Source: Candidatus Micrarchaeia archaeon (GTDB lineage Archaea; Micrarchaeota; Micrarchaeia; Anstonellales; J096). From it: DNA of 29,554 nucleotides. The stretch is taken from contig JBGQMY010000018.1 in assembly GCA_041500865.1 (NCBI GenBank), positions 1 through 29,554 on the forward strand. The letters are read 5' to 3'. The notes under the pieces were generated by a model, which was not told the origin of the DNA, did no database searches, and saw only the letters and a list, made by a program, of their open reading frames with translations. The position numbers and the translations under genes were made by a program. Every line of letters starts with the position of its first letter. The first letter of the stretch is position 1. This document shows positions 1,781 through 29,147 of the stretch, in pieces.

Positions 1781-4700
1781 TCACGGTGTGACTGTGAAGT
1801 TCCATGTTGCGCTTGTTCCGAGGTTGCTGACATAGTCCGTGCAGTTGACATACCATGTGTAGCCGCCAGTGTAGTTGTAGGTGTATGTCACGTTCCACTT
1901 TACGTTGTTGGTTGCGCTTGCAGCCGTGGAGTTGTACAGCAGCCCGCTGGAGGCATTGTAGGTGTATATGTTGCACGCCATGGTGGATGCAACGGCGTCC
2001 ACTGCCTTGAATGACGTGAAGATGCTGACTGGCTTTGGCCCTCTCACATCGTCGCTCGCCGGCGTGTACAGCGTGATGACCGGCGCAACGGTGTCTATCG
2101 TCACGTTCCTGGTCTCGGTATAGCTGAATTTGCCGACAGTGTCGTATGCTGTCGCGTTCCAGTAGTATATGTCGTCCGCAAGGCCTGTCCAGTTGTTGTA
2201 GAACGAAGTTGCTGGGGTAGTCGCTGAAGCATACAGGCCTGTGGAATTGTAGACAAGCACTGTCAGGTTGGCGAAGTTGGCGTCGCTTGCCGATACATTG
2301 ACCTGTATGTAGGCGTTCTTCGTGTAGTTGGTCGTGTTTGTGGACGGAGTCACGAACTGGATTGCCGGGTTGGCCGTGTCTATCGTTATGCTCCTTGTTT
2401 CCGTCTTGTTCATGTTGTTTGCGTTGTCAAACACGGTTGCATTTATGCTGTAAACGCCGTCCGGAAGCTCTGTCCAGTTGATTGACAGGTTTGTTGCCGC
2501 CGTGGCCGACACGTTGTACAGCCCTGTTGCGTTGTAGAGGTAGATTGTTACATTCTTCAGGTTAGTGTCGATTGCCGTCACGTTCGCGAATATGTAGTTC
2601 AGCGCGGAGTACGACGTTGCGTTCGTTGTCGGAGCCGTAAACAGTATTACGGGACCGGTTGCGTCTATCGTGGCATTCCTTGTCTCTGTTGAGTTGATGT
2701 GCCCTGCGTTGTCATACGCCGTCGCGTTCCAGTAGTACAAACCATCGGCAAGCCCTGTGTAGTTGACAAACAGCTGGGTTAATGCCGTTGAGTTGGACCT
2801 GGCTATCCCGCCGGTTGCGTTGTACAGGGTAATGGTGGTGCTGTTGTAGCTGCTGTCGCTTGCCGATACGTTTATCACAAGATTGGACCTGGCAAGGTAC
2901 GTGCTGGAGTTGTCTGTCGGCGTTGTAAATAAGATTACAGGGTTTGCCGTGTCAATGTTTATGCTCCTTGTCTCGGTCTTGTTGAAGCTGTTGGCACTGT
3001 CGAATGCCGTCGCGTTTATGTAGTATTGGCCGTCAGGAAGCGCCGTCCAGTTGACGGACAGGTTTGTCGCCGCCGTGGCCGACACGTTGTACAGCCCTGT
3101 TGCGTTGTACAGGTAGATTGTGAGGTTCTTCAGGTTCGCGTCGCTTGCGGTCGCGTTCACGCTGATGTAGCTCAGCGCGGAGTACGACGTCGTGTTCATC
3201 GTTGGTTCCACCAGCAGTATCGCCGGATTGACAGTGTCTATCGTCACGTTCCTGGTTTCGGTATTGTTGATGTTGTTTGCGCTGTCATACGCTGTCGCAT
3301 TGAAATAATAAATGCCGTCTGCAAGGCCCGTGTAGTTGACAAACAGCTGGGTTAATGCCGTTGAGTTGGACCTGGCTATCCCGCCTGTTGAGTTGTACAG
3401 GAAGATTGAAAGGTTTGCGAAGTTCCCGTCGCTTGCCGATACGTTTATGGCAATGCTGGACCTGCTTATGTATATGCTGTCGTTGTCAGTAGGCGTCGTA
3501 AAGCTGATTGCCGGGTTGACCGTGTCAATCATTATGCTCCTCGTCTCTGTCTTGTTGAAGTTCCCTGCGTTGTCAAAAGCAGTCGCGTTTATGTAGTATG
3601 TGCCGTCCGGAAGCTCTGTCCAGTTGATGGACAGGTTCGTTGCCGCCGTGGCCGACACGTTGTACAGCCCTGTTGCGTTGTACAGGTAGATTGTGAGGTT
3701 CTTCAGGTTCGCGTCGCTTGCGGTCGCGTTCACGCTGATGTAGCTCAGCGCGGAGTACGACGTTGCATTTGTGGTCGGCGCCATGAACAGTATTGCCGGG
3801 TTGGTTGCGTCTATCGTGGCGTTCCTTGTCTCGGTTGAGTTCATGTGCCCGAACTTGTCGTATGCCGTCGCATTCCAGTAGTAAAGCCCGTCCGCCAGCA
3901 GCGTGAAATTGACGAATACGCTGGAGGATGCTGAATATGACTCGTTCTTGAACCCGCCGGTTGAGTTGTAAAGCCTCACTGTCGTGTTCTTGATGTTCGC
4001 GTCAGCCGCAGATACGTTGACTGCGATGTACGGCCTGCTGGAGAATAGGCTGGTGTTGTCTGACGGCGACGTGAACGTTATGGCCGGGTTGGTTGTGTCC
4101 ACCGTGAACTTTAACGTTGCGCTTGTGGCATTGTTCCCTGCGGAATCCACGCACCTGATGTACCAGCTGTTCACCCCGTCGCTGAAAGCGTAAACGTCAG
4201 AGAAGGTGATGCCGCTGTATGCGGTCACGTTCGCAACAGATGAGCCATTCGAGTATATGCCGCATGCAATGTCCTGGGACATGGCATCAGTCGTTACAAA
4301 CGACATGAATACGCTTGAAGACAGGAAGACGCTGTTGTTTGCGGGGTTGGATGTGCTAAGCGTCGGCGCAACCGTGTCCAAGGCGATGTTCCTTGTCTCG
4401 GTCTTGTTCATGTGCCCGAACTTGTCGTATGCCGTCGCGTTGATTGCGTACCTGCCGTTCTTTAGCCCGGTGAAATTGTAGAAAGACTTGTTGCCTGACA
4501 CGGTAACGGCCTTTATCAGGGCGCCGCTTGAGGCGTTGTAGAGCCTTATTGTTATGTTGTTCTGGTTCAGGTCCGCCGCGCTGACATTGACGGCTATAAA
4601 GGTGCGCGAGAGGTTTGACGATTCGCCCGGTGTTGGGTTGACAAACGATATGGCCGGGTTTGTCACGTCTATGACTACGCTCCTTGTTGCCGTCTTGTTG

Positions 4701-7039
4701 AAGTTGTTTGCATTGTCATATGCCGTTGCATTTATGTAGTATGTCCCGTCCGGAAGCGCGGTCCAGTTCACGAAGAGGTTCGCTGCTGTGCCGTTTGTGA
4801 CGTTGTACAGCCCTGTTGCGTTGTAAAGGAAGATTGTAACGTTCTTCAGGCTGGTGTCATTTACCGTAACGTTCACTGCAATGTACGACCTGTTGGAGTA
4901 GGTAGTGGTGTTTTGGGAAGGCGCCATGAACCTTATCGCCGGGTTTGTGGTGTCAATTGTCGCGTTCCTTGTCTCGGTGGAGTTGGAGTGTCCGGCCTTG
5001 TCGTACGCCGTTGCGTTGAAGTAGTAAACGCCGTTGGGAAGCTTGCTGAAGTTGAACGTTGCCATATAGCCGGATGATGTGGACCATGTCTGGTTCTTCA
5101 GGGCCCCGGATGCGTTGTAAAGCATGATTGTCACGTTCTTGAAGTTGGCGTCAGTGACAGATATGTTGACAATCACAACATTGGTAAGCGCGGATGAGTT
5201 GGTTGTCGGCGACATGGACACTATTGCGGGGTTCACGGTGTCTATCGTCACGTTGCGTGTTTCGGTCTTTGCGAGGTTGTTTGCGTTGTCAAACGCCGTC
5301 GCGTTTATGTAGTATGTCCCGTCCGGAAGCGCGGTCCAGTTGATGGACAGGTTTGTCGCTGTCGTGGTCGTCACGTTGTACAGCTCAGTGGAATTGTAGA
5401 GATATATTGTGAGGTTCTTGAGGTTCACGTCGCTTGCCGTCGCATTCGCTGCAATGTAGGTCCTGTCCGTATAAAGGCTTGAGTTGTATGTCGGGAAAAC
5501 AAAGCGCACAACGGGCTTGGTGGCGTCCACCGTCGCGTTCCTTGTTGCAGTCGAGTTTGAGTGGCCGGCCTTGTCGTATGTTGTTGCGTTGAAGTAGTAA
5601 ACGCCGTCGGGAAGTTTGCTTAAATTCAAGGTCACCATATAATTAGCGGAAGTTGACCATGTCTGGTTCTTCAGTACCCCTGTCGAGCTGTACAGCCTTA
5701 CCGTGACGTTCTTGAAGTTGGCGTCAGTAACAGACACGTTGACTGTTATCGTGCCGGTCAGCGAGGACGAGTTGGTTGTCGGCGACATGGACACTATTGC
5801 GGGGTTTGCGGTGTCTATCGTCACGTTGCGTGTTTCGGTCTTTGCGAGGTTGTTTGCGTTGTCAAATGCTGTCGCGTTTATGTAGTATGTCCCGTCCGGA
5901 AGCGCGGTCCAGTTGATGGACAGGTTTGTCGCTGTCGTGGTCGTCACGTTGTACAGCCCAGTGGAATTGTAAAGGTAAATGGTTACGTTCTTAAGGCGGG
6001 CATCGGCTGCCGTGGCCTTTGCAAAAATGTATGCCCTTGCCACGTACGTGCCTGATGTGTCTGTAGGCGCCACAAAGCTTATTGTCGGGTTTGTCCTGTC
6101 TATGGACGCATTCCTTGTCCCCGTGCTGTTGGAGTGGCCTGCAAGGTCGTATGCGGTCGCATTCCAGTAATAGACGCTTGTCCCAAGCGTGCTGCTGAAC
6201 GTAATCATATAATTAGCGGAAGTTGACCATGTCTGGTTTATCAGGACTTTCGCGGCATTGTAAAGCCGCACTGTCACGTTCTTGAAGTTCGGGTCAGAAA
6301 CAGATACGTTGACTGTTATCGAGTTGGCAATCGCGGACGAGTTGGTCGTGGGAGACATGAACACTATTGCAGGGTTTGCCGTGTCAACCGTGAAGTTCCT
6401 TGTCTCGGTCTTGTTCAGGTTTCCTGCCAGGTCAAATGCCGTCGCGTTGATGTAGTAAACGCCTTCGGCGAGCGACGTCCTGTTGTCAGACAGGCTTGTC
6501 ATGAAGGCCCCGGATACATTGTAATACAGCCCCGTGGAATTATAGTAATATATTGTGAGGTTCTTGAAGTTTGCATCGCTGGCCGTGACGTTTATCAGGG
6601 CGCTGTTCCTGCTCAGGTATGCGCCTGAGTTTTCCGTAGGCGACTTGAAGATTATTGTCGGGTTGGTTGTGTCCAATGTGACATTCCTTGTTTCCGTGGA
6701 ATTGCAGAGGGTTGCATTGGTTGAGTTGCATGCCGTTGCATTGAAGTAATAAAGCCCTTGCCCCAGGCTGCTGAAATTGTGGAAATAGTCTGTTGCGGCT
6801 GACGTCCCGAAGCTGGACAGCAGGCTGCCGCTGCCGTTATATAGGTATATCGTTATGTCGGATGCAAAGTTGGCAGAGACATTTACGTTGATGTAGTTCC
6901 TGCTGAGGTACGCGCTCGAGTTGTCCGCAGGAGACGCGAACTGAGCCCTTAAATCCGCTTCGACTGCGAACATCATCGGCGCTGCAAAAATAAGTATCCA
7001 CGCAATGGCGTAACGCATGTTAAGTTTAACGGCGTTCAT
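1781..7039 (-). CDS. Large secreted surface glycoprotein/adhesin with 18 tandem ~96-aa Ig-like domains
   Basis: GGAG Shine-Dalgarno upstream; hydrophobic signal (RYAIAWILIFAAPMMFA); 18 repeats of the pattern P.I.F..PT...YY.NATA.D..G..N.TETR....D; dense N-x-S/T sequons. Confidence 0.9.
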   Translation of the reverse strand: MNAVKLNMRYAIAWILIFAAPMMFAVEADLRAQFASPADNSSAYLSRNYINVNVSANFASDITIYLYNGSGSLLSSFGTSAATDYFHNFSSLGQGLYYFNATACNSTNATLCNSTETRNVTLDTTNPTIIFKSPTENSGAYLSRNSALINVTASDANFKNLTIYYYNSTGLYYNVSGAFMTSLSDNRTSLAEGVYYINATAFDLAGNLNKTETRNFTVDTANPAIVFMSPTTNSSAIANSITVNVSVSDPNFKNVTVRLYNAAKVLINQTWSTSANYMITFSSTLGTSVYYWNATAYDLAGHSNSTGTRNASIDRTNPTISFVAPTDTSGTYVARAYIFAKATAADARLKNVTIYLYNSTGLYNVTTTTATNLSINWTALPDGTYYINATAFDNANNLAKTETRNVTIDTANPAIVSMSPTTNSSSLTGTITVNVSVTDANFKNVTVRLYSSTGVLKNQTWSTSANYMVTLNLSKLPDGVYYFNATTYDKAGHSNSTATRNATVDATKPVVRFVFPTYNSSLYTDRTYIAANATASDVNLKNLTIYLYNSTELYNVTTTTATNLSINWTALPDGTYYINATAFDNANNLAKTETRNVTIDTVNPAIVSMSPTTNSSALTNVVIVNISVTDANFKNVTIMLYNASGALKNQTWSTSSGYMATFNFSKLPNGVYYFNATAYDKAGHSNSTETRNATIDTTNPAIRFMAPSQNTTTYSNRSYIAVNVTVNDTSLKNVTIFLYNATGLYNVTNGTAANLFVNWTALPDGTYYINATAYDNANNFNKTATRSVVIDVTNPAISFVNPTPGESSNLSRTFIAVNVSAADLNQNNITIRLYNASSGALIKAVTVSGNKSFYNFTGLKNGRYAINATAYDKFGHMNKTETRNIALDTVAPTLSTSNPANNSVFLSSSVFMSFVTTDAMSQDIACGIYSNGSSVANVTAYSGITFSDVYAFSDGVNSWYIRCVDSAGNNATSATLKFTVDTTNPAITFTSPSDNTSLFSSRPYIAVNVSAADANIKNTTVRLYNSTGGFKNESYSASSSVFVNFTLLADGLYYWNATAYDKFGHMNSTETRNATIDATNPAILFMAPTTNATSYSALSYISVNATASDANLKNLTIYLYNATGLYNVSATAATNLSINWTELPDGTYYINATAFDNAGNFNKTETRSIMIDTVNPAISFTTPTDNDSIYISRSSIAINVSASDGNFANLSIFLYNSTGGIARSNSTALTQLFVNYTGLADGIYYFNATAYDSANNINNTETRNVTIDTVNPAILLVEPTMNTTSYSALSYISVNATASDANLKNLTIYLYNATGLYNVSATAATNLSVNWTALPDGQYYINATAFDSANSFNKTETRSINIDTANPVILFTTPTDNSSTYLARSNLVINVSASDSSYNSTTITLYNATGGIARSNSTALTQLFVNYTGLADGLYYWNATAYDNAGHINSTETRNATIDATGPVILFTAPTTNATSYSALNYIFANVTAIDTNLKNVTIYLYNATGLYNVSATAATNLSINWTELPDGVYSINATVFDNANNMNKTETRSITIDTANPAIQFVTPSTNTTNYTKNAYIQVNVSASDANFANLTVLVYNSTGLYASATTPATSFYNNWTGLADDIYYWNATAYDTVGKFSYTETRNVTIDTVAPVITLYTPASDDVRGPKPVSIFTSFKAVDAVASTMACNIYTYNASSGLLYNSTAASATNNVKWNVTYTYNYTGGYTWYVNCTDYVSNLGTSATWNFTVTP
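2380..6420. repeat. Intragenic tandem repeats with ~287-nt domain period and 573-nt two-domain period
   Basis: 3069-3190 is identical to 3642-3763 (122 nt, offset 573); about 5240-5400 is near-identical to about 5813-5973 (offset 573); outer limits approximate. Confidence 0.9.
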
Positions 7040-28741: not shown

Positions 28742-28892
28742 CCCATCATCCTGCTCCAATAAGCTTGGAAACGGTTTAAAAGGTGAATGTGAACCCATGT
28801 ACTCCGGCTGTGGGATAAAAGCAAGCAATAGATATGTCTTGGCAGCGAGGCCTAATTACATTCATAAATAACAATTCATTAAATCAAAATAT

Positions 28893-29040
28893 GGCCCGCA
28901 ACAAGGCTGAAAGTGCTGGTTGCGGGCTTGTCAGACTCGAGAGAGCTACCGCCGGGCAGGCGGGGAGTAACGCTTCTGGAGATGGAACCGTAGTCCTGTC
29001 ATTGAAGGAAGAAGCCCAGCTTTAGTGCTGGGTGTGTCAC
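28893..29040 (+). mobile_element. Non-autonomous IS200/IS605-type element or stand-alone TnpB omegaRNA scaffold (no tnpA or tnpB)
   Basis: Five successive stems. The 3' part TACCGCCGGGCAGGCGGGGAGTAACGCTTCTGGAGA...TTGAAGGAAGAAGCCCAGCTTTAGTGCTGGGTGTGTCAC follows the tnpB 3'/right-end pattern: GAAG, subterminal hairpin, terminal TCAC. Confidence 0.78.
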
Positions 29041-29046
29041 AAAACG

Positions 29047-29147
29047 TCCCGCCTGCCGGATTTGAACCAGCAACCCTCCGGTAACTGCCATACGCAGTGC
29101 GCCACTATTAACTACAGCCGGATGCTCTACCGTTGAGCTAAGGCGGG
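29047..29147 (-). tRNA. tRNA-Tyr(GTA) with 29-nt intron at 37/38 (intron 29083-29111)
   Basis: Minus strand folds as acceptor CCCGCCT/AGGCGGG + A73, D arm GCTC/GAGC, anticodon stem TCCGG/CCGGA with CT-GTA-G, T loop TTCAAAT; BHB formed by CUGU:GCAG with bulges AGU and UUA; CCA not encoded. Confidence 0.97.

Follow-up and report, generated by a model that had tools for sequence, protein, structure and literature searches.

A short stretch of DNA near the end of a contig from Candidatus Micrarchaeia archaeon (assembly GCA_041500865.1, contig JBGQMY010000018.1) resembles the guide-RNA end of a tnpB transposon that has lost its tnpB. This raises the question from which parts the locus was built and which protein could use an RNA made from it. 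The window, i.e. the whole stretch of 29,554 nucleotides that was analysed, is contig C18 of a 1.04 Mb assembly that is 92% complete and contains housekeeping genes, Hjc and intron-containing tRNAs, which fits a small archaeon. On the minus strand of the window, 1781-7039 encodes a probable surface protein of 1752 aa that contains many bacterial Ig-like repeats. A first-pass annotation had described a protein-less omegaRNA right-end module of the IS200/IS605 type with an apparently intact structure at 28893-29040.

Extent, parentage and fold of the mini element

The element is longer than first described. It starts at 28780, 113 bp to the left of the earlier limit, and its left end and promoter had been missed (Table 1). 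The absence of a TnpB gene in cis was borne out: the element has no open reading frame for TnpB, the coverage of TnpB alignments upstream of the core is zero, and only a 44-aa remnant frame is left. At the orthologous site the element is missing in both sister species, G002 and G001, and at the empty site of G002 TTTAA directly precedes 63 nt that agree at every position with the 3′ flank of the mini element. The flippase-like gene (PF01943) and the tRNA-Tyr gene, between which the element sits, adjoin each other in G002. A similarity search of the contigs found the mini element as a single copy in its own assembly.

Table 1 Features of the mini element and its flanks (positions in the window)
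Feature	Position	Strand	Remarks
TTTAA target motif (TAM)	28775..28779	+	Just 5′ of the element, outside it
Whole non-autonomous IS200/IS605 (IS1341-derived) mini element	28780..29040	+	261 bp, without target duplication
Decayed left-end hairpin	28794..28814	+	Resembles its counterpart in the G002 tnpB element
tnpB promoter inherited from the parent	28840..28890	+	TATA-like TTCATAAA at 28861-28868; predicted activity
Former start codon; predicted start of transcription, at the first deletion junction with its AATATG microhomology	28891..28893	+	Putative; alignment with L016 on both sides
Hairpin A (= stem 1), tnpB ORF-internal piece, codons xYKAESAGC	28893..28928	+	Match inside the C2 tnpB
Second deletion junction, ~135 nt of zinc-finger-coding sequence lost	28929..28934	+	Spacing from hairpin A to core
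Small CTC/GAG stem (= stem 2), 5′ edge of the omegaRNA core	28936..28945	+	Sequence; second island of synonymous constraint begins here
Core stem (loop GGGCA), corresponding to ISDra2 stem 1	28945..28968	+	Compensatory changes in 15 minis
Pseudoknot 5′ strand GGCA, partner 29035-29038	28955..28958	+	186/192 cells paired
Variable central stem (= stem 4), weaker than in the parent type	28973..29011	+	Stem pairing and comparison with the parent type
Right end: GAAG, subterminal hairpin 29014-29033, pseudoknot 3′ strand 29035-29038, terminal TCAC	29011..29040	+	
Predicted guide (host flank), antisense into the tRNA-Tyr 3′ end	29041..29056	+	
Host tRNA-Tyr(GTA) with intron, neighbour outside the element	29046..29147	-	

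The pieces of the element could be assigned to different parts of tnpB transposons. The left end (28794-28830) is 78% identical to that of the G002 tnpB element, and the promoter region is 71% identical to the stretch before the G001 tnpB start codon, with 22 nt from the end of the TATA-like box to the ATG in both. A right-end origin holds for positions 28932-29040, which are 83% identical to the end of the full tnpB element in G002 and whose last part shares 92% identity across 25 nt with the right end of a multi-copy IS200 (seven copies). Stem 1, in the following called hairpin A, does not belong to the right end: it matches C2:45769-45734 inside a tnpB gene, at codons xYKAxSAGC.

All five stems named in the first-pass annotation are present. 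Hairpin A pairs at 10 of 10 positions, stem 2 at 3/3, stem 3 at 5/5 and stem 5 at 7/7, and stem 3 gains a GCT/AGT extension (28945-47 with 28966-68). In stem 4 the five outer pairs all form, together with seven of the eight inner ones (one A·C, two G·U). Folding of 28885-29060 yielded -76.8 kcal/mol (z -3.90), a stability reached by none of 200 shuffles. An inverted match of 28951-65 to the 3′ end of the tRNA distorts this fold; as the same core sequence is present at other loci, it was judged to be due to chance. The stems also covary. Compensatory changes were found in the core stem across 15 minis (e.g. CG 6, GC 6, UA 2) and the subterminal hairpin of the right end covaries, while stem 2 is missing from two minis (L058 and L093) and from the consensus fold. 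No Rfam family matches the feature at E values up to 10, where the adjacent tRNA-Tyr alone scores, and five related loci gave no match of note. Curated families of the relevant kind include sot, IS605-orfB and HEARO.

The two tetranucleotides proposed as guide and cleavage site, GAAG (29011-14) and TCAC (29037-40), are both there and presumably obey the pairing rule of IS608. The pseudoknot first proposed, between the GGGC loop and GCCC at 29014-17, could form on paper but is not supported, because its pairing equals that of shuffles (135 of 192 cells against a shuffle mean of 134.7, 48 cores) and GCCC already forms the 5′ arm of stem 5. Instead, the loop of the core stem pairs with TGTC at 29035-38 in 186 of 192 cells, which 0 of 2000 shuffles reach, although the 48 cores are related sequences and not independent. 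These were the cores parsable at the terminal hairpin out of 82; 34 were dropped. Compensatory changes occur at neighbouring pairs (C-G 30 and A-T 16 at one, A-T 29 and C-G 12 at the next). The structure can therefore be called intact for stems 1 and 3 and for this pseudoknot, less so for the left end and for stem 4, where drift is apparent.

Sequence comparison demonstrates the boundaries of the element, its empty site, the parentage of each piece and a covarying core with a pseudoknot. The element is gene-less, has two subterminal hairpins related to those of the IS605 type, and was inserted without duplication 3′ of a target motif, as PATEs are. Its core derives from a tnpB 3′ end, has the 3′ flank in the position of a guide, and forms a pseudoknot from the loop to the guide side, as in omegaRNAs. 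We thus consider it very probable that the mini element is a PATE carrying an omegaRNA. It may have been mobilised by TnpA in trans or have arisen by deletion in place.

Some observations concern the host site. An AT-rich box ahead of the flippase gene is interrupted by the insertion (28775-28781); the first bases of the element restore TTTTAAA on the minus strand, so that the host promoter may be spared. Several minis adjoin tRNA-like sequences (29041-29147 of the window; L036, L037, L044). A transcript reading through from the window's mini would cover the 3′ end of tRNA-Tyr in antisense. A second site with the TAM followed by the guide does not occur in the assembly (12 nt with up to two or 16 nt with up to three mismatches).

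Candidate helpers in trans and the state of the window's copy

A gene-less element would depend on proteins encoded elsewhere. The sole tnpB of the genome (C2:45472-46665) encodes 397 aa, is homologous to ISDra2 TnpB (E 2.7e-51), and has the D/E/D residues, all three RuvC motifs and both CxxC motifs intact. It lies in its own tnpB-only element, which was likewise inserted after TTTAA, so that a catalytically intact TnpB with the same flank is encoded on another contig. The RuvC-dead TnpB repressor or Cas12f-like partner that had been considered was not found; the 92% complete assembly yielded one TnpB-family match. Furthermore, a tnpA-only IS200 is present as contig-end fragments including a tnpA fragment. 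Its seven right ends are nearly identical to that of the mini, and all six left-end copies follow TTAA. Since the IS200 left end is common to the C2 tnpB element, IS200 is the likely mobiliser. Copies of IS200 stand at the ends of contigs C3, C4, C10, C11, C16, C25, C28, C30, C34 and C35; being near-identical, they appear to have spread recently, and they break the assembly.

Could the RNA serve a domesticated partner, i.e. a RuvC-dead TnpB or a Cas12f-like protein, or could the element encode the 44-aa peptide? The guide runs antisense into tRNA-Tyr, and the open frame at 28891-29025 fuses hairpin A to the tail of tnpB, as such readings would have it. Nevertheless, the single TnpB-family match retains D/E/D and both CxxC motifs and the element is absent from both sister species, and we regard a domesticated partner or a peptide as scarcely credible. 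The peptide itself was rejected, its start and frame being kept in only 3 of the 18 minis described below.

A weightier alternative separates the copy from its family: the minis as a group would be functional, but the one in the window would be a decaying, immobile relic with an irrelevant RNA. Intact left ends of the genome fold as DNA at -7.9 and -8.2 kcal/mol; the left end of the mini reaches -2.0 kcal/mol, and relative to intact ends its hairpin is shifted by about 4 nt towards the TAM. Transitions weaken stem 4, the right-end hairpin is 2 nt shorter than that of IS200, and one change affects a near-invariant A (28965). In addition, the mini is single-copy and the closest parent-type TnpB lies outside the assembly. 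On the other hand, the hairpin A of the window surpasses those of the other 17 minis in stability (-22.8 kcal/mol, 10-bp stem), the core stem, the pseudoknot and the TATA spacing are intact, and the genome holds an intact TnpB with the same TAM. A mere relic therefore seems rather unlikely to us, and judging from the sequence the mini copy in the window is probably still active.

Hairpin A in tnpB genes and in gene-less elements

Selection on hairpin A was examined inside intact reading frames. For this, 29 tnpB genes selected by protein similarity alone were compared (29 of 30 loci usable). Excess synonymous identity amounts to 0.456 at hairpin A and up to 0.636 in the omegaRNA core, against a background of 0.082 ± 0.054 (maximum 0.225) in 172 other intervals. 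Synonymous constraint thus forms two islands only, and these are exactly the two pieces that the minis keep. Compared with synonymous recodings, the region of hairpin A folds with a mean z of -1.68 and lies below zero in 26 of 29 genes; the core stem reaches -1.77. The third positions of the Lys and Ala codons face each other as G·U in 18 genes, G-C in 6 and A-U in 5, without any mismatch, and codon use is restricted (TAC 28/28, GCA 12/12, Ala as GCT or GCC 29/29); these counts overstate the significance, because related tnpB genes are not independent. Covariation of the lower stem is modest. It is split over two registers, one with 14 double-change cells (reached by 0/500 shuffles) and the other with 9 (28/500), and some rows keep the pairing through amino-acid changes.

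Hairpin A consists of a lower stem, an AA/G internal loop, an upper stem of 3 bp and a 7-nt loop. The AA/G loop over a G·U pair may resemble an adenosine platform; by eye it does not fit a kink-turn.

TnpBs on viral contigs served as a second set (62 after dereplication, 74 of 80 loci usable, 4/62 unparsed). Their pooled z is about -0.5, and the split by motif type was made after this pooled result had been seen. The 19 genes of the KAxxAG type show a hairpin z of -1.89, with 18/19 paired and GCT/GCC in 18 against 11 expected, whereas the other 39 genes, mostly of the WYG type like ISDra2, have a z of -0.07 and no hairpin signal. Hairpin A thus appears to track the KAxxAG type of TnpB and not the ISDra2 type. 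Its pairing with the core of the same element is no better than with permuted partners (121 elements); such a lack of lineage-specific pairing is expected of a free-standing module. Taken together, these sequence patterns make it highly likely that hairpin A is a selected RNA structure, both in full genes and in minis.

Including the window's element, 18 minis with hairpin A beside the core were collected from six genomes (two orders) and ten metagenome loci by pattern scans and DNA searches, most of them via a pattern that itself requires hairpin A. As a consequence, the identity of 0.95 among their hairpins is inflated by the way they were found. The backward pattern used as a control gave 0 hits in 401 genomes, and a pattern scan of viral contigs found no minis. 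The distance from hairpin A to the core is 34 nt in the mini element, compared with 166-169 nt in full genes. The minis differ in left-end type and linker length. In 13 of 18 the TAC codon is changed to AAC, which closes the stem, and 4 of 18 have an in-frame stop. Twelve minis have a TATA-like box whose end lies 24-32 nt ahead of the core motif, in two the interval is 41 nt, and four have no match; this spacing would place hairpin A at about the start of the transcript. In full genes the TATA spacing is only partly informative, with no match in 13 of 27.

Several loci deserve mention in their own right. L038, L040, L042, L043 and L045 combine a near-identical promoter and hairpin A with two different cores, which suggests core exchange. 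The G340 family additionally keeps about 45 codons upstream of hairpin A: its loci L084, L313 and L314 represent a young mini made of promoter, these codons, hairpin A and core, with 97% identity to a full element. This mini appears to represent an already mobile intermediate on the way to a minimal element. L064 (G064:C1, about 51760) has kept hairpin A and a TATA-like box next to a core too diverged to parse; in its genome only an N-terminal TnpB fragment was found, and L064 is possibly a relic or an exapted RNA.

In a tree built from 92 cores over 112 columns, with rough support, the mini cores are scattered among those of full elements and require nine changes, at least six of them forced by strong branches. 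The 18 labelled rows were 17 minis plus L084, L064 being left out. An origin of the minis in a single clade was rejected (p-AU 1.8e-61). The scattering could reflect a repeated origin by separate deletions or, as an alternative, an exchange of cores between elements.

Hairpin A is not obligatory for a mini, and about half of the ORF-less elements are without it. A survey of 150 genomes of the order gave 107 loci among the matches listed (104 model matches or their neighbours and two to three added by hand), of which 73 were parsed and 34 were not. Among the gene-deleted elements, four to five carry hairpin A beside the core (four of these belong to the training set of the model) and five lack it. 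Two partial genes have hairpin A at the normal distance, and among the matches listed it is present in all 56 full genes in which the region is visible. In the multi-copy family G028 (L008, L017, L025, L029, L032, L316), which has no gene either, the core and the ATACTC breakpoint are the same, but a different multi-hairpin 5′ part stands in place of hairpin A; L316 has no Rfam match.

The strand that carries hairpin A is the one on which TnpA acts, and the junction between the start codon and the codons preceding the hairpin falls in a microhomology. The hairpin might thus act as single-stranded DNA, as an additional TnpA site or a deletion hot spot, and the existence of minis without it would agree with this. 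However, G·U is the commonest pair at the varying position (18/29), the hairpin follows the protein type of TnpB, and the tnpA-only IS200 spreads without tnpB. Moreover, the 18 minis keep hairpin A whole and never half, at the predicted transcript start. We give a function as DNA a very small chance.

A candidate role for hairpin A and related systems

The overall explanation that we consider reasonably probable is that a tnpB-only element was turned into a PATE-like mini whose omegaRNA is loaded in trans. An IS1341-type tnpB-only element would have lost its gene by two internal deletions. The retained tnpB promoter would then fire a leaderless RNA that starts with hairpin A, followed by a short linker, the omegaRNA core and the guide in the flank. 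TnpB made elsewhere would bind this RNA and trim its 5′ end, as the accessible text of PMC10278001 describes for other TnpBs. The loaded TnpB would be guided to TTTAA plus the flank, i.e. to the empty allele after excision, and repair of the cut would restore the mini. That cleavage of the empty allele favours retention of the element follows the model of Meers et al. (10.1101/2023.03.14.532601), as outlined there.

The role that we rank first for hairpin A is that of a module in the pre-omegaRNA which the protein reads and which would help TnpB to find, load or trim its RNA. In a full gene it would label the mRNA ~140 nt 5′ of the core, and a mini that has retained it would capture TnpB in trans. 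A role in TnpB loading or processing is, on comparative grounds, a serious candidate though somewhat short of probable. Still more tentatively, we propose that the guide-RNA precursor of the large KAxxAG class is bipartite: the hairpin in the coding sequence ~140 nt upstream would be a specific TnpB loading or processing signal coupling the protein to its own mRNA, and minis would repeatedly have rebuilt a compact RNA of signal and scaffold to hijack TnpB in trans. Several findings count against the overall explanation given above: the multi-copy G028 family spreads without hairpin A, in ISDra2 the 5′ part is dispensable, and the C2 TnpB, whose omegaRNA is longer, shares no more than 44% identity with the nearest parent-type TnpB, which makes cross-loading putative. 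According to the part of PMC10278001 available, the KAxxAG-type orthologs 1, 5 and 6 cut DNA in vitro with scaffolds of 106-137 nt that do not include the hairpin A region.

That hairpin A is not needed for cleavage in vitro would also suit a hairpin that makes no contact with TnpB but stabilises the 5′ end, or binds a host factor, against 5′ exonuclease decay. In most minis hairpin A stands at the predicted transcript start, where its basal stem is lengthened, and it does not pair with the core. For such protection, however, any stable hairpin would do, yet a weak AA/G loop and a 3-bp upper stem are kept; their conservation across archaeal and viral genes suggests specific recognition. A stabiliser is therefore improbable in our view.

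Even less probable is negative control of tnpB mRNA, by autoregulation or delayed processing, with the mini as a decoy that dampens TnpB. The mRNA of AmaTnpB is reported to have a cis-inhibitory stretch near RuvC-II (PMC10278001), and the 3′ arm of hairpin A can pair weakly with the core (-7.6 kcal/mol, against -18.5 for the hairpin). This pairing is again no better with an element's own core than with permuted ones, and a selfish mini would gain little from inhibiting its helper. The AmaTnpB stretch (nt 826-875) ends, by eye, about ten codons before YKAxxAG. An identity of hairpin A with that inhibitory region was rejected, as the positions differ.

If hairpin A does take part in loading or processing, it bears on how TnpB picks and loads its omegaRNA. 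A 2026 review (PMC13639567) states, in the part available, that neither an RNA-free TnpB structure nor a loading transition is known. The natural deletion derivatives amount to a minimisation experiment in which both constrained islands were kept. They provide a candidate signal of 36 nt and predict its carriers, namely KAxxAG TnpBs and not the structure-solved ISDra2 WYG type. Codon optimisation of tnpB or trimming of guides removes hairpin A, which may matter for editing tools; if the precursor is indeed bipartite, adding hairpin A to engineered guides would raise RNP assembly.

Protein-less omegaRNA PATEs and standalone omegaRNAs are already known from published work. To these the present analysis adds a Micrarchaeota mini family, the rejection of a single origin and the restriction to KAxxAG; it also found no pairing of hairpin A with the core and counted the minis that lack it. 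Searches of the open full-text literature turned up neither a conserved hairpin at the YKAxxAG codons nor its retention, though figures, supplements and subscription papers may hold one; likewise, the accessible parts of PMC10734277, PMC12558985 and 10.64898/2026.09.24.754181 mention no hairpin inside tnpB. Hairpin A thus points to an undescribed RNA signal inside many tnpB genes.

Among characterised systems, SisTnpB1 of Sulfolobus islandicus (PMC10640517) belongs to an archaeal IS200/IS605 element with TTTAA as TAM and left-end flank, as in the mini. In contrast to the mini, that element contains its gene; an internal hairpin is not mentioned in the text available. AmaTnpB trims its own mRNA to the omegaRNA (PMC10278001, as described in the accessible text), and an upstream mRNA feature affects its activity, as hairpin A might. 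Its inhibitory stretch directly follows RuvC-II and is proposed there to pair with the omegaRNA, whereas hairpin A has no co-varying pairing with the core. The ISDra2 omegaRNA (PMC10097598, in the part available) shares with the mini a core of ~110 nt at the right end, a terminal hairpin and a guide in the flank. Positions -5 to -3 of ISDra2 pair with the loop of stem 1, the same pseudoknot geometry as in the mini, and the region upstream of -116 is reported there to be dispensable. ISDra2 TnpB is of the YKAAWYG type, and the hairpin signal was not found in the 39 non-AG genes.

Further parallels are elements without a gene. The PATE-like omegaRNA elements of Geobacillus stearothermophilus (10.1101/2023.03.14.532601) and the PATEs of Haloquadratum walsbyi (PMC3119063), as far as described in the accessible text, resemble the mini in several ways: they lack an ORF, have a subterminal hairpin at each end, insert behind a short target motif without target duplication, and carry an omegaRNA that depends on TnpB in trans. 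The mini differs in having a tnpB promoter fused to hairpin A ahead of the core, a piece that the accessible text on those elements does not mention. The standalone mobilised omegaRNAs of the OMEGA systems (PMC10691335, available part) are, like the mini, guide loci without an effector, which is encoded elsewhere in the genome; the RNA of the mini differs from them in being stitched together from two separate parts of the lost gene.
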